Positions 27,840 through 36,946 are shown, counted from the stretch's first letter. The stretch is DNA of 64,000 nucleotides from an uncultured Rhodobacteraceae bacterium (GCA_947501355.1 CANMVA010000001.1:1695492-1759491), one strand, 5' to 3'. Notes: a model not told the origin generated them from the sequence alone. Numbers and translations: made by a program.

Positions 27840-28193
27840 TTAAAAGACGTTGATGCCAACAAGGGTGATCCCGACTGCGGCTTCGCACAGGAAAAAGCCC
27901 CATGTTTTGCGGGTCGGCGCCTCGTCCGCGATGATCGAGGTCAGACGTCCGATGGAGGCAAACCCCCAAGCAAAACCGATCATGGCGTAAGCCACGGGAG
28001 AACCCAGAAAGATCGCGCCGACGCCCAGACCCACGAAAAGGGCACCCGACGCGGCGCGGATTTCCGACACGCCCATCGTGGTCGCGCCACGCTGCAGATC
28101 GACGACCTCCATCGTGTATTTTGGCGCGAGCCAGCCAAACAGACCCAAAGCGATGCTGAAGAGTGCGAGCGAGATGTTGATGATGTCGATCAT
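27840..28193 (-). CDS. small four-TM membrane protein (DUF4345-like)
   Basis: The internal ATG at 28193 gives MIDIINISLALFSIALGLFGWLAP. 117 aa with four hydrophobic segments. Confidence 0.65.
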   Translation of the reverse strand: MIDIINISLALFSIALGLFGWLAPKYTMEVVDLQRGATTMGVSEIRAASGALFVGLGVGAIFLGSPVAYAMIGFAWGFASIGRLTSIIADEAPTRKTWGFFLCEAAVGITLVGINVF

Positions 28194-28250
28194 ATGTGCC
28201 TCTGATTTACAGTTTGACTGTATTACGCATCTGACATCCGATTGGTTCAC

Positions 28251-28282
28251 AAAAAAAGCCATCTCGGATGAGATGGCTTTTT
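28251..28282 (-). terminator. rho-independent terminator (bidirectional form) after the solute-binding protein gene
   Basis: A7-GCCATCTC-ggat-GAGATGGC-T5. On the minus strand the hairpin is followed by TTTTTTT. Confidence 0.8.
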
Positions 28283-28302: not shown

Positions 28303-29343
28303 TTAGAATCCTGCCTTGATCCGCTCAAACATCTCGCCTTGCTTTTCGCGCAGGGCATTATCCATCGGAAGTTGCGCCAAAACAGGCGCGCTGATCTCGC
28401 CCAGACCAGCAGCTTCCAGCGCCTCTGCGCCGAAATTGGCCATAGAGGCCGCGTTGGAGTGGCCATAGCCATCGGCCATCAGCGCCTCGGTCGAAGACGG
28501 ATCGAGGAAGGCATTGATGTAGTCATAGGCCTTGTCCTCGGAGCCCTCGCCATCCTTGAGGTTCACGTAGCCGCAGAGCCATAGGGATGACCCTTCTGCC
28601 GCTTCACGCTGAAAACCCACCGGGAAGCCTTCATCAACGAGCGTCGGGTAGGTTTCGTTCCACGCCCAGGCCACAAGCACTTCGCCCGTCGCCATCAGCT
28701 GCGCCAGCTCGCCCGGGTCGGTCCAGTAGGTGCGCAGGTTGCCATGCACCTCGCGCAGCCAGTTGGAGGCAGCTTCGAACTGTTCATCCGTGGCCGTGGT
28801 CCAATCGGTGGTGCCGGTGGCCAGATAAGCCAGCGCGTAAGCGTCATCGACATTGTCGGGCAGGGTCATACGGCCTGCATAGGCGGGGTTCTTGAACACG
28901 TTGAGCGACGCCACATCCTCGGCAGGCACTTCATCCGTGTTGTAGGCAATCGCCGTCGAGCCGAAATCAACCGGGATGAAATACGTGTCCGATGCGGCGG
29001 CCGAGATATCCTCGCCCATGAGGTTCGCATCAAGGTTTTCCAGCTCGTCGATCCGGCTCAGATCCCACGGCTCCAGGATGTCGGAGGCGACCCATTTGGT
29101 GACCGAGCCTGCGCAGACATGGCTGACATCGGCCTTGAAGCCCGAGCGGATCTTTTGCAGCGCTTCATCTTCGTCGCCGAAGAACGAAAAGGTCGGGCTG
29201 GTGCCGTGCTTGTCGATATAGCTTTGGTGGAAGGCGGGCATCTCGAAGCCGGAATAGTCGAAGACCAGCAGTTCTGGGTCTTCGGCAAAGGCGGCGGTGG
29301 ACAAGGCGAGGGTGGCCACGCCCGTGGACAGAAGGTGTTTCAT
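28303..29343 (-). CDS. ABC transporter periplasmic substrate-binding protein, PotD/PotF (polyamine-type, SBP family 1)
   Basis: MKHLLSTGVATLALSTAAFA signal peptide and PotD-like core (SGFEMP, FIPVDFGSTAIAYN). A GGGAG SD precedes ATG 29343. No permease or ATPase gene is adjacent. Confidence 0.8.
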   Translation of the reverse strand: MKHLLSTGVATLALSTAAFAEDPELLVFDYSGFEMPAFHQSYIDKHGTSPTFSFFGDEDEALQKIRSGFKADVSHVCAGSVTKWVASDILEPWDLSRIDELENLDANLMGEDISAAASDTYFIPVDFGSTAIAYNTDEVPAEDVASLNVFKNPAYAGRMTLPDNVDDAYALAYLATGTTDWTTATDEQFEAASNWLREVHGNLRTYWTDPGELAQLMATGEVLVAWAWNETYPTLVDEGFPVGFQREAAEGSSLWLCGYVNLKDGEGSEDKAYDYINAFLDPSSTEALMADGYGHSNAASMANFGAEALEAAGLGEISAPVLAQLPMDNALREKQGEMFERIKAGF

Positions 29344-29519
29344 GAGTAAGCTCCCAACAGAATTTGCGCGAAACGCTAAGCGCGGTCGGGGGAGGGTGCA
29401 AGCGGGTTCTTTCATATGGCCGCGCCCCGGACCTCATACGGTTAGGGTCCCACGTCAAGCCCGGGGCGGTTGTGCGGATACAGGACAGTTACGCGCCAGC
29501 CCGGAATCAAGCCGAAGGC

Positions 29520-29661
29520 GCCGGGCTATCGGCGACCCGTCCCACGAGAAGGCGATTTGTAGGGTCTAAGTGCTTCGTTCAAAGGGAAGACGTGTTTGGC
29601 TGCCATAAAGTATTGAAGAAAGCCTGTCGGCGCGCCTCCCCAGGGTCGCCGATAGCCCGGC
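29520..29661. repeat. 19-bp perfect inverted repeat enclosing a 104-nt spacer
   Basis: GCCGGGCTATCGGCGACCC at 29520..29538 and its exact reverse complement at 29643..29661. The right arm abuts the GntR stop codon. Confidence 0.9.
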
Positions 29662-30392
29662 TACCGCTGCGCCGCCCGCGCCTCGAACACACTCTGCGCC
29701 AGCGCGACCGTATACTCTGCCAGTTCCACCAGCGCCGCATCCGCCGCTCCGCCATCCTGTGCCTCAATCGCGTCGGCGATCCCACCGTGCAGAGTAATGA
29801 TCCGTTCGCGGGAGCGGGCGGTGAACGTAATCATGTTCATCAGTGGCTGCATCGCCTCCACCGCACCCGCCAACTGGTATGACAGAACCGGATTGCCCGC
29901 GCCATCCACCAACGCGCGGTGAAAGGCGACGTCAGACGCGCAAAAGGCCTCATCCGTCAGACCGGGTTGACCCTGCCGATGTATCTCCGCGCGCATGGTC
30001 GCCAGATGATCGGGCGTGCGGCGCGTGGCAGACAGGGGCGCGCAGGCGCGCTCCAACGCGTAACGCGCTTCGCAGGCGGTCTCGAACGACACCGCGTTCA
30101 TCGACAGCAGAAGCGTCGAGGTCGTGATCTGCTGGGAGTAGGCGTCGGCATAGCGCAACCGGTTCACGAACGCGCCGCCTGTCGCCCCGCGCTGGGTGCG
30201 GATCAAGCTTTGCGCGGCCAACCGTTTGAGCGCCTCGCGCACGGTCGAGCGGGAGACCTCGAACTGGTCGGCCAGTTCCGCTTCTGACGGCAACCGCTCA
30301 TCCACAGGCATCGCCCCGGACACAATCGCATCGCGAATCGCAGATGCAATCTGCGCCGAGAGGTCTTTGGAACTGGTCGGATCAATTTTCAT
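29661..30392 (-). CDS. GntR-family transcriptional regulator (FadR/FCD subfamily)
   Basis: An N-terminal winged HTH (LPSEAELADQFEVSRSTVREALKRL) followed by an all-helical FCD-like C-terminal domain. 243 aa. Confidence 0.9.
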   Translation of the reverse strand: MKIDPTSSKDLSAQIASAIRDAIVSGAMPVDERLPSEAELADQFEVSRSTVREALKRLAAQSLIRTQRGATGGAFVNRLRYADAYSQQITTSTLLLSMNAVSFETACEARYALERACAPLSATRRTPDHLATMRAEIHRQGQPGLTDEAFCASDVAFHRALVDGAGNPVLSYQLAGAVEAMQPLMNMITFTARSRERIITLHGGIADAIEAQDGGAADAALVELAEYTVALAQSVFEARAAQR

Positions 30393-30393
30393 T

Positions 30394-30417
30394 TGTCAGA
30401 CAATTAAAAGTCTGACA
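30394..30417. promoter_or_regulatory. candidate GntR operator: perfect 8-bp inverted repeat TGTCAGAC-N8-GTCTGACA
   Basis: It lies in the 58-nt divergent intergenic region between the GntR start (30392) and the DUF2182 start (30451). Each arm contains a GT-N3-AC core, as in FadR-type boxes. Confidence 0.6.
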
Positions 30418-30450
30418 TTTGAATTGCAACGGTTTTGGGAGGAATCGTCG

Positions 30451-31242
30451 ATGCTGCACGCGCCCTTGCGCACAATTTTATGGCTTAGTTTTTTCACCGC
30501 GATCCTGCTGTCGTGGTGGATGATGTTTGCCATGGCCATCGACATGGACCTTGATCTGCTGGGTCGCCCTGGCGAGATGGGCGCGCGCATGGCCGCGATG
30601 GACCCGCGCATGCCGATGGATATGCCCATGGCGCGCTTTGGCCCCTTATTTGCCATGTGGGCCATCATGATGGCCGCAATGATGCTGCCGACGCTGATCC
30701 CAACCTTGCGCGCCTATGAAGACCTGATGGTCAGCGCAGACGGCACCCGCGCGGGCTGGCTGGGCGTGCTGCTGGGATATTTCATCGTCTGGGTCGGCTT
30801 TGCGGCGGTCATCACGGCAGTGCAACTGGGGCTGCTTTTCGGCGGCGTCGTCGACATGCTGGGCATCGCCAAAAGCCCGTGGGTTGCGGGCGGTCTCCTG
30901 CTGATCGTGGGCTTTTTCCAATTCACCCGCGCCAAGGAAATCTGCCACGGCGTCTGCCACTCGCCCATGACCTATTACCTGGGTCACTGGAAAACCGGCT
31001 TTGGCGGCGGGCTGCGCATGGGGCTTGGCTTGGGCGCATTTTGCGTGGGATGCTGCTGGGGCTTCATGGCCCTTGGCTTTGTGGGCGGTGTGATGAACCT
31101 CGCCTGGATGGGGCTCGCGACGCTGTTCATGGTGCTCGAAAAGCTGCCCCAGATCGGACATGTCGTAACGAAACCGATGGGCTTTGCCCTGTCACTCGCG
31201 GGTCTCGCAGTGATGGGGTGGCCCCTCGTGAATGGAGGATAA
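30451..31242 (+). CDS. DUF2182 family predicted metal-binding integral membrane protein
   Basis: ATG 30451 is preceded by GGGAGG. The protein is multi-TM with a Met-rich stretch (MWAIMMAAMMLPT) and Cys/His clusters CHGVCHSP and CVGCCWGF. Confidence 0.75.
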   Translation: MLHAPLRTILWLSFFTAILLSWWMMFAMAIDMDLDLLGRPGEMGARMAAMDPRMPMDMPMARFGPLFAMWAIMMAAMMLPTLIPTLRAYEDLMVSADGTRAGWLGVLLGYFIVWVGFAAVITAVQLGLLFGGVVDMLGIAKSPWVAGGLLLIVGFFQFTRAKEICHGVCHSPMTYYLGHWKTGFGGGLRMGLGLGAFCVGCCWGFMALGFVGGVMNLAWMGLATLFMVLEKLPQIGHVVTKPMGFALSLAGLAVMGWPLVNGG

Positions 31243-31243
31243 A

Positions 31244-31957
31244 ATGGCCAACACGAAACCCGCGAAGAAACCGGCGGATCGGTTGCCGATCAGCCAGCGC
31301 ATTGACCAGCGGATGCCCAATCCGGGCCGCCGCAAGATGAACCCCACCGAATGGGCCATCAAGGGCGAGCTGTTTCTCAACTGCTCCTGCACTGTCTTTT
31401 GCCCCTGCGTGGTCAGCCTTGGCGCGCATCCACCCACCGAAGGGCATTGCCACGCCTGGATGGCCATCGCGATTGATGAGGGCCATTTCGAGGGTGAAGA
31501 CCTGTCCGGTCTGAACGTGGGCCTTCTGGTCGATATTCCGGGCCGCATGGGCGAGGGGAACTGGCGGGTTGCGGCTTACGTCGATGAACGCTCCACCCCC
31601 AAAGCCTATGACGGTCTGCTCAAGATTTTCTCAGGGGCTGCTGGCGGCACCACAGGCCTTTTCACGATGCTGGTGTCCGAGATCATCGGCGCCGAGCGCG
31701 AGAAGGTCGAGATCGTCCGCGAGGGCAAGAAACGCGGGCTCTATATCGGGCGCAAGATCGCCGGTGAGATCGAGATGATCGACGGCGCGTCCCCCGATCA
31801 CCCGGTCATGGTCAGCAATTCAAAATACTGGATGGGCCCCGACATTATCGCCGCCCAAGGCACAAAATCGCGGGTCCGCGATTATGGCCGCATCTGGGAT
31901 TTCGGTGGCAAATCCGCCGAGATTTGCCCGATTGACTGGAAAGGACCCAAGCCATGA
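31244..31957 (+). CDS. DUF1326 family protein
   Basis: GGAGGA precedes ATG 31244. The motif WAIKGELFLNCSCTVFCPCV (CxC-x4-CxC) is the DUF1326 hallmark as I recall it. A shorter start at ATG 31337 (MNPTEW) is possible. Confidence 0.75.
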   Translation: MANTKPAKKPADRLPISQRIDQRMPNPGRRKMNPTEWAIKGELFLNCSCTVFCPCVVSLGAHPPTEGHCHAWMAIAIDEGHFEGEDLSGLNVGLLVDIPGRMGEGNWRVAAYVDERSTPKAYDGLLKIFSGAAGGTTGLFTMLVSEIIGAEREKVEIVREGKKRGLYIGRKIAGEIEMIDGASPDHPVMVSNSKYWMGPDIIAAQGTKSRVRDYGRIWDFGGKSAEICPIDWKGPKP

Positions 31958-32460
31958 TTGATCGGGAATATTGCGTGACGATGGCGCGGTATAACCAATG
32001 GCAAAACCGCAACATCCTCAAGGCATTGGAGGGTCTCAGCCCTGATGAGTTGACACAGGAGCGCGGCGCGTTCTTTGGCTCGATCTTCAAGACGCTGAAC
32101 CACCTTCTCTGGGGCGATCAGCTTTGGATGAGCCGCTTTGATGGCGGTGCCGGTTCGGGAATGGATGGCATGGCGGGTCTCGAGATGACACCAACGCTAG
32201 CCGTTTGGGGTGCCGAGAGATTTCGGACCGATGGACGTATCCGTCTCTGGGCAGAAAATCTGAAAAGCATTGATCTGTTGGGCGACCTAAGCTGGTATTC
32301 CGGGCTGTCCAAACAAGAAATGAGCAAGCCCAAAGCGCTTTGTGTGATGCAACTCTTCAACCACCAGACCCATCATCGCGGGCAGGTCCACGCGATGATG
32401 ACGCAGGCCGGGCTGAGCACCGCTGCAACCGATATTCCCGTCATGCCTGAGGAGGACTGA
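31954..32460 (+). CDS. DinB-family (four-helix bundle, metal-dependent) protein
   Basis: MARYNQWQNRNIL, LNHLLWGDQLW and NHQTHHRGQVHAMM (the DinB His triad pattern). The ATG overlaps the upstream stop (ATGA). Confidence 0.8.
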   Translation: MIDREYCVTMARYNQWQNRNILKALEGLSPDELTQERGAFFGSIFKTLNHLLWGDQLWMSRFDGGAGSGMDGMAGLEMTPTLAVWGAERFRTDGRIRLWAENLKSIDLLGDLSWYSGLSKQEMSKPKALCVMQLFNHQTHHRGQVHAMMTQAGLSTAATDIPVMPEED

Positions 32461-32461
32461 C

Positions 32462-33565
32462 ATGGCCCAGATCTCTCCGTCGCGCCGTTTGCGGCGGACC
32501 CCGTTCTCGGATGGTGTCGAAGCTGCGGGTGTCAAAAACTACACGATCTACAACCGGATGATGCTGCCCACGGTCTTTGAAAGCGTGGAAGCCGATTACC
32601 GTCACCTCAAGACCGCCGTGCAGGTCTGGGACGTTTCGGTCGAACGTCAGATCGAGGTAAAAGGCCCCGATGCAGGCCGCCTGATGCAGATGTTGACCCC
32701 GCGCGATCTGCGCGGGATGCTGCCGGGGCAGTGCTATTACGTGCCGATCGTGGACGAGACGGGTGGGATGCTGAATGACCCTGTCGCCGTGAAGCTGTCG
32801 GAGGACCATTACTGGATTTCGATTGCCGACAGCGACCTGCTGCTTTGGGTCAAGGGCATCGCCTATGGCTACCGCCTTGACGTGCTGGTGGACGAGCCCG
32901 ATGTGTCCCCACTCGCCGTGCAAGGCCCCAAGGCGGACGATCTGATGGAGCGGCTCTTTGGCGAAGAGATCCGCAATGTCCGCTTCTTCCGCTTCGGCTG
33001 GTTCGATTTTCAGGACACGCCCATGGTCATCGCCCGCTCAGGCTATTCCAAGCAGGGCGGGTTCGAGATTTACATGCCCGACACCGCGCTTGGCATGCCG
33101 CTTTGGAACGCGCTGATGGAGGCGGGCGAAGACCTGGATGTCCGTGCAGGTTGCCCCAACGGGATCGAGCGGATCGAGGGCGGTCTGCTATCTTACGGCA
33201 ACGATATGGACGACGACAACACGCCCCATGAATGCGGGCTGGGCCGCTTCTGCAACACGCAGACCGCTATCGGCTGTGTGGGCCGGGATGCGCTTCTGCG
33301 CGTGGCCAAGGAAGGTCCAGTCAAACAGGTGCGACCGATCTCCATCTATGGGGACGCCGTGCCGTCCAGCGACCGGGCGTGGCCGATCTATGGTAATGGC
33401 AAGAAAGTGGGGGCGGTCACCTCTGCCGCGTGGTCGCCGGATTTTGAGACGAATGTCTCAATCGGCATGGTGCGGATGACCCATTGGGACCCCGGCACCA
33501 AGGTGGAAGTTGAAACGACAGACGGGATGCGCGATGCAACCGTTCTGGAAGAATTCTGGATTTGA
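32462..33565 (+). CDS. dmdA: GcvT-family aminomethyltransferase, probable dimethylsulfoniopropionate (DMSP) demethylase
   Basis: 367 aa. SPSRRLRRTPFSDGVEAAGVKNYTIYNRMMLPTVF, VARSGYSKQGGFEIY and ECGLGRFCN closely resemble the Ruegeria DmdA sequence as I remember it. It sits immediately upstream of acuI, as in R. pomeroyi. Confidence 0.72.
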   Translation: MAQISPSRRLRRTPFSDGVEAAGVKNYTIYNRMMLPTVFESVEADYRHLKTAVQVWDVSVERQIEVKGPDAGRLMQMLTPRDLRGMLPGQCYYVPIVDETGGMLNDPVAVKLSEDHYWISIADSDLLLWVKGIAYGYRLDVLVDEPDVSPLAVQGPKADDLMERLFGEEIRNVRFFRFGWFDFQDTPMVIARSGYSKQGGFEIYMPDTALGMPLWNALMEAGEDLDVRAGCPNGIERIEGGLLSYGNDMDDDNTPHECGLGRFCNTQTAIGCVGRDALLRVAKEGPVKQVRPISIYGDAVPSSDRAWPIYGNGKKVGAVTSAAWSPDFETNVSIGMVRMTHWDPGTKVEVETTDGMRDATVLEEFWI

Positions 33566-33577
33566 GGGAGAGACGCG

Positions 33578-34570
33578 ATGACGTTCAATGCTTTGGTGGT
33601 GGAGAAGGACGACGAGGGCAAAACCAGCGCGTCGGTGCAGCAAATCGAGAGCAGTCAGCTTCCCGATGGCGACGTAAAGGTCGCGGTTGAATACTCGACG
33701 GTGAACTACAAGGACGGCCTGTGCATCGGCCCCGGTGGCGGCCTTGTGCGCGACTACCCCCATGTGCCGGGCATTGATTTTGCAGGCACGGTCGAAAGCT
33801 CTGACGACGCGCGCTACAAGCCCGGCCACAAGGTCGTTCTGACCGGCTGGCGCGTGGGCGAGGCCCATTGGGGCGGCTATGCGCAAATGGCCAGCGTCAA
33901 GGCCGATTGGCTGGTGCCGCTGCCCGACGGGTTGGACACGCGTCAGGCGATGGCCGTTGGCACGGCGGGCTTTACCGCGATGCTCGCCGTCATGGCGTTG
34001 GAAGATCATGGGTTGGAGCCGGGCAACGGCCCTGTGCTGGTCACAGGCGCCGCAGGCGGCGTCGGCTCGGTCGCGACGGCCACTCTGGGCAATCTGGGCT
34101 ATGAGGTCGCTGCAGTGACCGGGCGGCCTGAGACGGCGGACTATCTCAAAAGCCTCGGCGCAACCCAGATCGTGCCGCGTGACGAGATCAACGAGACCAC
34201 CAAGCGCCCGCTCGAAGCCGAAACCTGGGCAGGCTGCGTCGATGCGGTCGGCGGCGAGATGCTGGCCCGTGTATTGGGCCAGATGAAATACGGGGCCTCT
34301 GTCTCGGCGGTGGGCCTCGCAGGCGGCGCAGGCCTTCCTGCAACGGTCATCCCGTTCCTGCTGCGCGGTGTAAACCTGCTCGGTATTGATTCCGTCATGC
34401 AACCCTACGCAAACCGTCTCCGCGCGTGGGAGCGGATCGCCAAAGACCTGCCGATGGACAAGCTGGAGGACATGGTCCAGCCCGCGACACTCGCCGATCT
34501 GCCGGGGCTGGGCCGCGATATCCTGAAAGGTCAGGTCAAAGGCCGGGTCGTGGTCGATGTGAACGCATGA
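33578..34570 (+). CDS. acuI: acryloyl-CoA reductase, YhdH/AcuI-type MDR oxidoreductase
   Basis: VEYSTVNYKDGL, VTGAAGGVGS and GRVVVDV. YhdH subfamily. 330 aa. Confidence 0.82.
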   Translation: MTFNALVVEKDDEGKTSASVQQIESSQLPDGDVKVAVEYSTVNYKDGLCIGPGGGLVRDYPHVPGIDFAGTVESSDDARYKPGHKVVLTGWRVGEAHWGGYAQMASVKADWLVPLPDGLDTRQAMAVGTAGFTAMLAVMALEDHGLEPGNGPVLVTGAAGGVGSVATATLGNLGYEVAAVTGRPETADYLKSLGATQIVPRDEINETTKRPLEAETWAGCVDAVGGEMLARVLGQMKYGASVSAVGLAGGAGLPATVIPFLLRGVNLLGIDSVMQPYANRLRAWERIAKDLPMDKLEDMVQPATLADLPGLGRDILKGQVKGRVVVDVNA

Positions 34571-35007
34571 AAATCCGGCGGCTGACCGAAGCGGACGCAC
34601 CCGCCTGGCGTGCGCTTTGGACCGGCTATCTGGAGTTCTACGACAGCACCGTGCCGGAGGAGGTCTACCAGAACACCTTCGCGCGGCTGCTGGACGATGA
34701 CCTGAGCGAGGTCAAAGGTTTTGTGGCCGAAGACGATGGCAAGCTGATCGGGCTGGTGCATTATCTCTATCATGCCCATGGCTGGAGGCTTGAAAAGGTC
34801 TGCTATCTGCAAGACCTCTACGCCGATCCAGCTGCGCGCGGGCAGGGGGTCGGTGCCGCGCTGATCGAAGCGGTCTATGCTCAGGCTGACGCCGAAGGCG
34901 CGCCTGCGGTCTATTGGATGACGCAGGAGTTCAACCACACCGCCCGCAAGCTCTATGACCGGATCGGCACGCTCACACCCTTCATCAAGTATCAGCGCCC
35001 CAGCTAG
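34567..35007 (+). CDS. GNAT-family N-acetyltransferase
   Basis: MKIRRLTEADAPAW and the acetyl-CoA loop RGQGVGAALIEAV. The ATG overlaps the acuI stop (ATGA). Confidence 0.85.
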   Translation: MKIRRLTEADAPAWRALWTGYLEFYDSTVPEEVYQNTFARLLDDDLSEVKGFVAEDDGKLIGLVHYLYHAHGWRLEKVCYLQDLYADPAARGQGVGAALIEAVYAQADAEGAPAVYWMTQEFNHTARKLYDRIGTLTPFIKYQRPS

Positions 35008-35014
35008 AACTCGG

Positions 35015-35557
35015 CTAGAACTGCCGTCGCAACTCGCGCAGGGTGTAGCTTTGCGCAATGGGGCCCGCATCCCCGCGAATGAACTGCGGATCAGAGGTCA
35101 CGCATCCGATCCCGCAAAGCTGGCGCGCGCTGCGGGTATCGGGATTGGTCAGCCAGATGCGCCCGCCCGGAGTGGCAACAAAGCCGTAGACATCATCGCC
35201 CATATCCGAGAGCAGGTCCACATCGCTGGGCACCTCATTGAAGGTGTCGGTGTCGAAAGCGGCGTGGGTGTGGTAAGAGGCCAGCACCTCGTACCCATGC
35301 TCTGAGATATCAAGATCGCAGAAATCGCTGCCGCCCCGCTTAGGTGTCGAGGCCACGAAAGCGCCCGATCCATCGCGCCCGAAATAGCCGCAATACTCGC
35401 GGTTCTCCGCGATGGAGCGGGGCTGCAGACCGTCCAGAAACGCGACGGCCTGAGACACAAAGCCTTGCGAAAGGGCTGCGCGCTGCTGTGTTGGCGGCGG
35501 GGTGGGCGCGCAGGCGGTCAGCGCAACACAAAAACCGATGACACTGACGATCCGCAT
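35015..35557 (-). CDS. lipoprotein, DUF4329-like
   Basis: ATG 35557 gives MRIVSVIGFCVALTAC (lipobox). The core is REYCGYF...SYHTHAAFD...VPSDVDL. Confidence 0.65.
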   Translation of the reverse strand: MRIVSVIGFCVALTACAPTPPPTQQRAALSQGFVSQAVAFLDGLQPRSIAENREYCGYFGRDGSGAFVASTPKRGGSDFCDLDISEHGYEVLASYHTHAAFDTDTFNEVPSDVDLLSDMGDDVYGFVATPGGRIWLTNPDTRSARQLCGIGCVTSDPQFIRGDAGPIAQSYTLRELRRQF

Positions 35558-35713
35558 AAGGACCCCTTTTCTTGTGGCGGGGCTTTCACCCAAGCGAGCT
35601 TTTGACGCAGATACTGACCGGGCCAAGAACTTGTGACAACAGCCGTTTTTCGGTATGCCTTTGTCTACCGAGGATAGCCACCCGGTGCAGTCAATTTCGT
35701 TTGTGGAGGCGAA

Positions 35714-36946
35714 ATGCTCCGACAGGTCTTGGACACGTCATTCGTCCGAGCACAGTTCCCATCGTTCACTGAGCCCTCGCTCAGAGGTCACGCATTCTTC
35801 GAGAATGCGGGGGGCTCTTACATGTGTCGTCAGGTGATCTGGCGCTTCTCGCGGTTCTTCAAAGAGCGCAATGTCCAGCCCTATGGCGCATTCCCCGCCT
35901 CGATGTTGGCGGGCGACGAAATGGACGACGCGCGCGAACGTCTGGCGCGGATGCTGGGGGTGACCACGGACGAGCTGTCCTTCGGTCCCTCCACCACGCA
36001 AAACGTCTATGTGCTGGCGCAGGCCTTTGGGGAGTGGCTTAACCCCGGCGACGCGATTGTCGTGACCAATCAGGATCACGAGGCCAATACGGGCGCATGG
36101 CGCAAGCTGGCCGCCCGCGGCATCGAGGTGCGCGAGTGGCAGATCAACCCGGAGACAGGGCTGTTGGATCTGGACACGCTGGCGCCACTTCTGGAAGGCC
36201 GGGTCCGGCTGGTCTGCTTTCCCCATTGCTCGAATGTGATCGGGGCGATCAACCCGGTGAAGGCGATCTGTCAGCGCGTGCACAAGGCCGGTGCTTTCGC
36301 CTGCGTGGACGGGGTCAGCTACGCGCCGCACGGGCTGCCCAATGTCGAAAAGCTGGAAGCGGATATCTACCTCTTTTCCGCCTACAAGACCTATGGCCCG
36401 CATCAGGGGCTGATGGTGATCCGCACCGCCCTTGGCACGGCCTTGCCCAACCAGGCCCATGATTTCAATGGGGATGCGCTTTACAAGCGCTTCACCCCCG
36501 CCGGGCCAGCCCATGCGGAGATCGCCGCGAGTGCGGGAATTGCGGATTATCTGGATGCGCTCTACCGGCATCATTTCAAAACCGGGCGCGACGGGGCGGG
36601 GCGCGCGGAAAGCGTTGCGGCCGTGATGCGCAAACATGAGCTGTCGCTGATGGGGCCGCTGATGGACTATCTGGAAAGCCGTGAAGACTGGCGTCTGCTG
36701 GGCCCCAAAACGGCCGCCGACCGTGTGCCGACTTTCGCATTGAAACTGCCGGGTGATCCTGCACAGGCCGTGCGCGCGCTTGCCAAGCGTGGGATCATGG
36801 CCGGATCGGGTGATTTTTATGCCGTTCGCCCGTTGGAGGCGATGGGGATCGGACCCGATCCCAGCGTCCTGCGCCTCAGTTTTGTGCATTACACCACCGC
36901 TCAAGAGGTTGAACGTCTGATTGACGCCCTAGATCACATCAGGTGA
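35714..36946 (+). CDS. class V aminotransferase / cysteine desulfurase-like PLP enzyme
   Basis: FENAGGSY, VTNQDHEAN, HCSNVIG and FSAYKTYGP (PLP Lys context). 410 aa. Confidence 0.82.
   Translation: MLRQVLDTSFVRAQFPSFTEPSLRGHAFFENAGGSYMCRQVIWRFSRFFKERNVQPYGAFPASMLAGDEMDDARERLARMLGVTTDELSFGPSTTQNVYVLAQAFGEWLNPGDAIVVTNQDHEANTGAWRKLAARGIEVREWQINPETGLLDLDTLAPLLEGRVRLVCFPHCSNVIGAINPVKAICQRVHKAGAFACVDGVSYAPHGLPNVEKLEADIYLFSAYKTYGPHQGLMVIRTALGTALPNQAHDFNGDALYKRFTPAGPAHAEIAASAGIADYLDALYRHHFKTGRDGAGRAESVAAVMRKHELSLMGPLMDYLESREDWRLLGPKTAADRVPTFALKLPGDPAQAVRALAKRGIMAGSGDFYAVRPLEAMGIGPDPSVLRLSFVHYTTAQEVERLIDALDHIR

Follow-up and report, generated by a model that had tools for sequence, protein, structure and literature searches.

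In the sea, demethylation of dimethylsulfoniopropionate (DMSP) is one of the major routes by which organic sulfur is turned over, in competition with the production of the climate-active gas dimethylsulfide. We have analysed a 64,000-nucleotide stretch of DNA from an uncultured Rhodobacteraceae bacterium (CANMVA010000001.1:1695492-1759491; referred to as the window), in which six co-directional genes, identified from the listing of open reading frames and from the junction sequences, span positions 30451-35007: dmdE (DUF2182), dmdF (DUF1326), dinB, the DMSP demethylase gene dmdA, the acryloyl-CoA reductase gene acuI and a GNAT gene, with the regulator gene dmdR on the opposite strand (Table 1). 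A first-pass annotation, made from the sequence alone, had described these six genes as tightly packed, with junctions that consist of a 1-nt gap, an ATGA overlap, a 1-nt gap, a 12-nt gap and a second ATGA overlap, and both the coordinates and the junction sequences agree with this description. The ribosome-binding site of dmdF, GGAGGA, is situated within the 3' end of dmdE, and the identical junction pattern is found in an independent genome, that of Cognatishimia sp. MH4019. The motifs quoted in the annotation, i. e. MWAIMMAAMMLPT, CHGVCHSP and CVGCCWGF in DmdE, NCSCTVFCPC in DmdF and the His triad H50/H137/H141 in DinB, are all present, and their conservation in 67-72 orthologues is 95% or higher. 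The designation as a six-gene operon stands for the five conserved genes, whereas the sixth, the GNAT gene, is lineage-specific and lies outside the conserved module.

Table 1. The dmd operon of the window and its operator; the last row gives those loci of the comparison set that have an SBP56 gene linked to dmdR.
Feature	Position	Strand	Family assignment and context
dmdR (FadR-type GntR regulator, FCD effector domain)	29661-30392	-	Pfam GntR + FCD; divergent from the operon
two dmd boxes (predicted DmdR operator)	30410-30422 and 30395-30407	-	motif match; 2 bp apart
dmdE (DUF2182/PpoB2-family polytopic membrane protein)	30451-31242	+	PF09948; GGGAGGA before the start
dmdF (DUF1326 soluble protein)	31244-31957	+	PF07040; 1-nt gap after dmdE
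dinB (DinB-fold four-helix bundle, 168 aa)	31954-32460	+	PF05163; ATGA overlap with dmdF
dmdA (tetrahydrofolate-dependent DMSP demethylase)	32462-33565	+	NF009133; 1-nt gap after dinB
acuI (NADPH-dependent acryloyl-CoA reductase)	33578-34570	+	TIGR02823; 12-nt gap after dmdA
GNAT N-acetyltransferase	34567-35007	+	PF00583; start overlaps the acuI stop (ATGA)
dmdR-linked SBP56 loci	L003-L014, L016, L019, L020, L027, L029, L037, L056

The identities of the genes, their order and coupling as well as the operator are established in the window itself. The GcvT-like gene encodes a true DmdA: its product reaches 672 bits with the DmdA equivalog model NF009133 of NCBIfam (cut-off 410), as compared to 167 bits or less with the GcvT models, and it matches the structure of the Pelagibacter DmdA (3tfh) with 358.8 bits but the best GcvT with only 125.9 bits. 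These scores place the protein in the DmdA clade, so that the objection foreseen by the annotation, a GcvT-family protein outside this clade, does not hold, and they rule out that the gene is a non-DmdA paralogue. AcuI is recognized by TIGR02823 (YhdH/AcuI) with 451.5 bits (cut-off 297) and by the solved AcuI structures 5gxe/5gxf with 628 bits. A promoter scan of positions 29500-35800 returned no sigma-70-type site, and such a scan is uninformative for an alphaproteobacterium. The terminator scan of the same interval detected no terminator-like site at the dinB/dmdA junction; the matches obtained elsewhere were dismissed because they lie inside coding sequences or on the operator palindrome.

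An operon of this type was described in February 2026 by Fu et al. (EMBO J 2026, PMC12992908), who named dmdR, dmdE, dmdF and dinB beside dmdA-acuI. In Ruegeria lacuscaerulensis ITI-1157, the genes are arranged in the order DUF2182 (dmdE), DUF1326 (dmdF), dinB, dmdA and acuI, and the five genes are co-transcribed, induced by DMSP, repressed by DmdR and deregulated in a dmdR mutant. DmdR is a FadR-type repressor, and repression is relieved by acryloyl-CoA as the effector; this compound is the substrate of AcuI and is formed by PrpE from DMSP-derived acrylate. The R. lacuscaerulensis dmdE and dmdF mutants are unable to grow on DMSP but retain growth on acrylate, the dinB mutant grows poorly on DMSP, and the defect of the dmdE mutant is partly suppressed by deletion of dmdA. 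Moreover, purified DmdF consumes H2O2 and releases O2, the dmdF mutant contains higher levels of reactive oxygen species, and the function of DmdE was left open (all PMC12992908). Our literature search for DUF2182, DUF1326, COG5486, PF09948 and PF07040 brought up only this study and a 2010 review on PpoB2. The idea put forward in the annotation that the three genes that lie upstream of dmdA are functionally tied to dmdA-acuI is thus borne out by the co-transcription and the growth defects on DMSP in Ruegeria and by synteny in 55 of 67 loci (see below); its view that their role is undescribed and that they form a functionally new module has been overtaken by the publication of the operon. Since the existence, the regulation and the necessity of the operon have already been published, the window adds just another member of a known operon type, distinguished by a lineage-specific GNAT gene and an unusually compact control region, and what is still of interest is how DmdE, DmdF and DinB work biochemically.

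The dmd boxes of the control region support the assignment to this operon type. In the operons of Fu et al. (2026, PMC12992908), DmdR is a divergently transcribed FadR-type regulator, more than 66% identical to DmdR of R. pomeroyi. DmdR of the window is 83% identical to the regulator at the same position in Ruegeria halocynthiae, 73-85% identical to the regulators at 69 dmdA loci, and 76-80% identical to those of minimal loci that consist of dmdR and the divergent dmdA-acuI pair. The region between dmdR and dmdE comprises 58 bp. In R. pomeroyi, DmdR binds two 13-bp boxes, TTAAATGTCAGAC, that are spaced by 2 bp, and the general pattern of the dmd box has been given as a palindrome, NyGTM-N0-1-KACNy, present in two copies in the divergent promoter region (PMC12992908). 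Of the two boxes in the window, both on the minus strand, TCAAATGTCAGAC (30410-30422) matches the R. pomeroyi box in 12/13 positions and is the single site in the 64 kb with at most one mismatch to it; TTAATTGTCTGAC (30395-30407) matches in 11/13 positions. The paired boxes (30395-30422) read as a palindrome, TGTCAGAC-N8-GTCTGACA. Most dmdA loci retain the dmd box motif between the divergent genes. A second conserved motif, TGAGTCG, follows the second dmd box at a distance of about 20-30 nt, right before the start of dmdE, in most loci (L003-L079), and its counterpart in the window is GGAATCGTCG at 30437-30449; this motif could be an element of the leader or of the transcription start region.

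The window operon and that of R. lacuscaerulensis share the gene families and their order, the divergent FadR-type regulator, the intergenic dmd boxes, and the tight coupling of the accessory genes to dmdA. They differ in that only the window has a GNAT gene overlapping acuI, and in the 58-bp control region of the window. The divergon of R. pomeroyi DSS-3 shares with the window a regulator of the DmdR type, a pair of 13-bp boxes spaced by 2 bp, and the adjacency of dmdA and acuI; in contrast to the window, it lacks dmdE, dmdF and dinB and has 222 bp of intergenic sequence.

We located the seven window proteins in the 80 closest dmdA loci, taking one genome per species; 67 of these loci have sufficient upstream sequence to be informative, and 89 loci were examined overall. 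This survey of adjacency between DUF2182, DUF1326, DinB and dmdA, which had been suggested in the first-pass annotation, revealed the full arrangement, dmdR divergent from dmdE-dmdF-dinB-dmdA-acuI, in 55 of the 67 informative loci. Four loci (in Phaeobacter, Phycobacter and Pseudophaeobacter) contain only dmdR and the divergent dmdA-acuI and thus have the minimal form of R. pomeroyi, to which the Phaeobacter-type loci L038, L039, L060 and L079 correspond; dinB is absent from two loci and is the sole accessory gene in one. The junctions between dmdE and dmdF, dmdF and dinB, and dinB and dmdA overlap or span at most 2 nt at the median (58-61 loci), and the median gap between dmdA and acuI is 81 nt. 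At this last junction the window differs: the spacer (33566-33577) has 12 nt here and in the Cognatishimia-like relatives, as compared to the median of 81 nt in 66 other loci, and we therefore consider the whole operon to be compacted in the lineage of the window.

Two further observations concern the make-up of these operons. In R. halocynthiae (L089), the gene order is that of the window and DmdF, AcuI and DmdR are 82-83% identical to the window proteins (82% for DmdF), whereas its DmdA (L089:6213-7307) is only 59% identical to that of the window; both DmdA proteins pass the equivalog model (595 and 672 bits, respectively). Because of this difference, the operons look mosaic with respect to the dmdA clade. 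Moreover, plasmid pSMS3-2 of Antarctobacter heliothermus (154 kb; L081, 101807-106172) carries dmdR and a divergent DUF2182-DUF1326-dmdA-acuI cluster without dinB, and its DmdA passes the equivalog with 680 bits. As this copy shows, the module can reside on a plasmid.

Taken together, we are highly confident that the window contains a DmdR-controlled operon for DMSP demethylation and acrylate detoxification, dmdE-dmdF-dinB-dmdA-acuI, which is extended by a translationally coupled GNAT gene in a Cognatishimia-like genome, and nothing that we found contradicts the identity of the operon. Regulation, co-transcription and mutant phenotypes have been shown in Ruegeria and can be carried to the window by orthology. 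By this analogy, DmdR would occupy the two dmd boxes in the 58-bp region and block both its own promoter and that of the operon. With abundant DMSP, DMSP lyases and PrpE would yield acryloyl-CoA, which would bind DmdR and cause it to leave the DNA. DmdA would convert DMSP to methylmercaptopropionate, which would be degraded on to methanethiol, AcuI would turn the toxic acryloyl-CoA into propionyl-CoA, and DmdE, DmdF and DinB would provide an accessory protective function that is required by the demethylation branch.

It might be argued that dmdE, dmdF and dinB form an unrelated cassette for stress or metals, which has no DMSP-specific role and merely shares the promoter, and that the tight spacing results from genome compaction only. 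Indeed, DUF1326/DUF2182 pairs occur in several bacterial phyla, and those of Bacillus, Ralstonia, Rhodococcus and Streptomyces are found without DMSP genes; likewise, dmdA-acuI stand without the three genes in some Roseobacters (Phaeobacter, Phycobacter, Pseudophaeobacter and R. pomeroyi). However, the full arrangement in 55 of 67 loci extends over many genera and has overlapping junctions, and according to Fu et al. (PMC12992908), dmdEF of Rhodobacterales always adjoin dmdR and are clustered, in operon-like fashion, either with acuI or with both dmdA and acuI. The failure of the dmdE and dmdF mutants on DMSP, with growth on acrylate retained, and the partial suppression by loss of dmdA have largely refuted an unrelated cassette already, and we regard this explanation as very improbable.

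The following points are to be set against this assignment. The window AcuI reaches 432.8 bits with the AcuI equivalog model and is thus about 7 bits short of the cut-off of 440. Orthology to the characterized genes is deduced from family models, from synteny, from the match to the operator and from the 82-83% identity to the R. halocynthiae proteins. The structural models of DmdE and DmdF are of only moderate confidence, with values of the predicted local distance difference test (pLDDT) of 69 and 73. Finally, the metal- or thiol-based interpretation of the predicted DmdE/DmdF pair that we discuss in the following departs from the published assignment as a peroxidase.

The chemistry of DmdE, DmdF and DinB is the part of the operon that we infer. 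DmdE scores 200 bits with PF09948 (cut-off 28.7) and covers profile positions 1-187 of 188, i. e. the full length. The DUF label for DUF2182 has been superseded, and the family is now named 'PpoB2, copper chaperone' in Pfam. In Marinomonas mediterranea, PpoB2, the protein on which PF09948 / COG5486 was founded, delivers copper specifically to the cognate tyrosinase. DmdE resembles PpoB2 in covering the whole profile, and both are polytopic membrane proteins with Met/Cys/His motifs; they differ in that PpoB2 is encoded with the tyrosinase to which it delivers copper, whereas the partner of DmdE is a DUF1326 protein and the context is DMSP catabolism. Among the window genes scanned (about 19-53 kb), there was no tyrosinase or other recognizable copper enzyme. 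Members from Roseobacter, Bacillus, Ralstonia and Rhodococcus have MxxAMMxP, C165-x3-C169, C198-x2-C201-C202 and E230-K231 as invariant elements, which comprise five family-invariant cysteines. In addition, DmdE contains a Met-rich loop, MDPRMPMDMPM, and the histidines of its CHGVCH motif are specific to the Roseobacter clade. The model of DmdE has about 6-7 helices (pLDDT 69), and a fold search with it against solved structures gave nothing better than E = 1.5.

DmdF is a PF07040 protein (169 bits) in which C47, C49, C53, C55 and C69, i. e. a CxCx3CPC motif and one more cysteine, are invariant in 36 sequences with identities down to 28%. Searches of solved structures with the sequences of DmdE and DmdF yielded no useful match. 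The AlphaFold2 model of DmdF has a pLDDT of 72.7 and a predicted template-modelling score of 0.76, with low confidence in the cysteine loop; homologue lists above 80% identity gave shallow alignments, which limits the confidence in the models. The DmdF model showed weak fold matches to acetoacetate-decarboxylase-like beta proteins with template-modelling (TM) scores of 0.36-0.42, and in view of this weak resemblance we did not accept membership in that family. The same fold search detected no peroxidase, catalase or peroxiredoxin fold: a catalase-related protein came up only at E = 0.12 and a TM score of 0.18. The absence of a peroxidase-like fold in a predicted structure of moderate quality does not disprove the reported activity.

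Judged from the sequences and the predicted structures, DmdE and DmdF most likely form a cysteine-rich pair of a membrane and a soluble protein that acts on thiophilic metals or in thiol redox reactions, and the turnover of peroxide by this pair may be secondary. A putative role in metal or thiol handling is a live alternative to the published peroxidase role because DmdE belongs to a copper-transfer family, the cysteines are invariant, the DmdF model has no peroxidase-like fold, and an SBP56-family gene is found near the dmd operon at about 21 of the 89 loci examined. The first-pass annotation had suggested a metal or thiol cofactor or the handling of reactive sulfur, and from the sequence features these suggestions would appear at least as well founded as the label 'peroxidase'.

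The SBP56 genes may link this question to methanethiol. The copper-dependent methanethiol oxidase belongs to the SBP56 family; the classical mtoX gene clusters with a gene for an SCO1/SenC copper chaperone, and its product oxidizes the methanethiol from DMSP demethylation (Eyice et al. 2018, PMC5739008). At the loci with an SBP56-family gene, it usually follows directly behind dmdR. In R. halocynthiae (L089:1213-3343, minus strand), the gene and that of a 216-aa multi-pass membrane protein are positioned directly behind dmdR and on its strand; the SBP56 protein scores 579 bits with the Pfam model and 554 bits with the Sulfolobus SBP structure 2ece, and the 216-aa protein has no match in Pfam. 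The pair is present behind dmdR in about 19 of 80 loci, mostly of the Tateyamaria type (Table 1); in a Sulfitobacter metagenome-assembled genome (MAG; L049, 11656-13720), it occupies another position, downstream. The dmdR-linked SBP56 reaches only 108.8 bits with the MtoX equivalog model (cut-off 650) and belongs to another SBP56 clade. The dmd operon and the mtoX-SCO1/senC-mauG cluster are similar in that both act downstream of DMSP demethylation and have, at about 21 of the loci examined in the case of the dmd operon, a gene of an SBP56-family enzyme near that of a putative or known metal-handling protein; they differ in that the accessory proteins are SCO1 and MauG in the one case and PpoB2 and DUF1326 proteins in the other, and in that the 64-kb window has no SBP56 gene in a tblastn search. 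The main text of Fu et al. (2026, PMC12992908) mentions neither copper and PpoB2 nor the adjacency of SBP56 and dmdR.

It is tempting to speculate that DmdE and DmdF are not primarily a peroxidase but a module for the trafficking of copper or another thiophilic metal, or a cysteine relay; we consider this possible, if on balance unlikely. Such a module would either load or protect the methanethiol oxidase step, which depends on copper, or shield metal homeostasis from the methanethiol and sulfide that demethylation generates, and a redox metal bound to it would decompose H2O2, as reported, in a side activity. In addition to the full-length PF09948 match and the copper transfer by PpoB2, this idea would account for the Met-rich loop of DmdE, for the MxxAMMxP, CxxxC and CxxCC motifs that are invariant across phyla, and for the invariant CxCx3CPC motif and further cysteine of DmdF, a protein with no solved relative in sequence and no peroxidase or catalase fold in its model. 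The published peroxidase assays were run under harsh conditions, with 20 µl of protein at 10 mg/ml added to 1.76 M H2O2, and included an in-gel stain (PMC12992908). Moreover, the SBP56 genes behind dmdR or, in L049, downstream, and the SCO1/SenC copper chaperone encoded with the classical mtoX are in agreement with the idea, and the partial rescue of the dmdE mutant by deletion of dmdA fits a toxicity that arises downstream of demethylation. On the other hand, purified DmdF did consume H2O2 and release O2, and the level of reactive oxygen species was higher in the dmdF mutant. The window and most other dmdEF loci have no SBP56 gene nearby, and with a score so far below the MtoX cut-off the activity of the dmdR-linked proteins is putative. 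Similarly, the binding of copper or other metals by DmdE and DmdF is predicted only, and the neighbours of distant DUF1326/DUF2182 pairs are heterogeneous. The most specific proposal, that DmdE and DmdF constitute a membrane-to-cytoplasm copper/thiol pair serving methanethiol oxidation, e. g. by metallating an SBP56-type oxidase, with the peroxidase activity as a side reaction, is one that we put forward with slightly more reserve. If it were true, it would provide a first general function for the widespread DUF1326/DUF2182 pair and explain why demethylation needs DmdE and DmdF.

The distant pairs on plasmids and megaplasmids of Bacillus, Ralstonia and Rhodococcus (L082-L084) have the reverse order, DUF1326 followed by DUF2182. 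A few genes away from the Bacillus pair, a thioredoxin and a copper-binding protein of the four-helix-bundle type are encoded; the pair of Ralstonia is accompanied by a GNAT protein and an EamA transporter, and that of Rhodococcus by an aliphatic amidase and by an iron-chelate ABC transporter directly next to it.

The third accessory protein, DinB, matches only the DinB four-helix-bundle families PF05163 (91 bits) and PF12867, and among solved structures it is closest to 3di5, a DinB-like protein. It is the least conserved protein of the operon, with a median identity of 54% as compared to 77-85% for the others (72 loci), and yet H50, H137, H140 and H141 are at least 95% conserved. Fu et al. 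(PMC12992908) support a role of DinB in oxidative stress with two studies (Jarosz 2007, McKenzie 2003), both of which deal with DNA polymerase IV of Escherichia coli. This E. coli DinB is unrelated to the DinB of the operon, with which it shares the name alone: we rejected an identity as DNA polymerase IV for a protein that has 168 rather than about 350 amino acids and no Y-family polymerase domains. The DinB/YfiT-like superfamily has been linked to mycothiol and bacillithiol S-transferases, and the window DinB has the PF05163 fold of this superfamily, its 168 residues containing the His triad H50/H137/H141. From its sequence, the protein is most likely a His-triad metalloenzyme or thiol transferase. 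Two dinB alleles exist in the lineage of the window: the window DinB is 96% identical to that of Cognatishimia sp. MH4019 (L085) and 71% identical to those of L001 and L086, whereas DmdF and DmdA on either side share 96-100% identity among the four. At the DNA level, identity to L001 falls to 0.69-0.75 over dinB (window positions 32000-32450) and is at least 0.9 on both sides. This suggests that dinB has been replaced by recombination.

Besides the window, only L001, L085 and L086 have the GNAT gene next to acuI. L001 is a MAG with a DmdA that is 97% identical to that of the window, and it is the only locus among the 80 with the GNAT gene. Cognatishimia sp. MH4019 (L085) and the MAG L086 have gene lengths, junctions and downstream synteny identical to those of the window, and we therefore place the window in a Cognatishimia-like lineage. 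The GNAT gene is probably co-transcribed with the operon since it overlaps acuI and the next gene converges 7 nt downstream. GNAT homologues with 67-72% identity are present in many Roseobacter genera; in Alloyangia pacifica, the sole case examined outside the dmd-linked lineage, the homologue (71%) follows a gene for an RF3-type translation GTPase (presumably prfC), with no dmd genes nearby. As the gene next to acuI is confined to one lineage and this homologue lies away from dmd genes, we regard it as a recent addition, and it is probably a passenger or add-on. It seems doubtful that in this lineage the GNAT protein contributes to the pathway as a functional sixth member, for example by acetylating one of the pathway enzymes or a toxic by-product, an amine or a thiol. 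The ATGA overlap is kept in four independent assemblies, and the convergent downstream gene leaves the GNAT gene without promoter space of its own, as would be expected for such a member. Yet it is missing from the other 79 fetched dmdA loci, its homologues are widespread and, in Alloyangia, encoded away from dmd, identities of the protein within the lineage (81-86%) are lower than those of DmdA and DmdF (96-100%), and the family search gave no informative match. The main text of Fu et al. (2026, PMC12992908) does not include the GNAT gene.

The Pfam-scanned part of the window (about 19-53 kb) contains no further DMSP genes; the genes recognized there, among them those for P450, fumarase, photolyase, CMAS, MscS, 5-oxoprolinase-type and beta-glucosidase proteins, are unrelated to the operon. 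Several neighbours recur at other loci. A cysteine-desulfurase-like, pyridoxal-phosphate-dependent protein of the TIGR01976 VC1184 family (277 bits, below the cut-off of 352) is encoded at 35714-36946 on the plus strand, and in most of the 80 loci a homologous gene with 60-68% identity is found 0.1-6 kb downstream of acuI; this protein could be a conserved sulfur-related neighbour. On the other side, a small DUF4345 membrane protein is encoded upstream of dmdR (27840-28262, minus strand), and most related loci likewise have a homologue of it on the side of dmdR. The gene for a PotD-like solute-binding protein (28303-29415) is located between the DUF4345 gene and dmdR.

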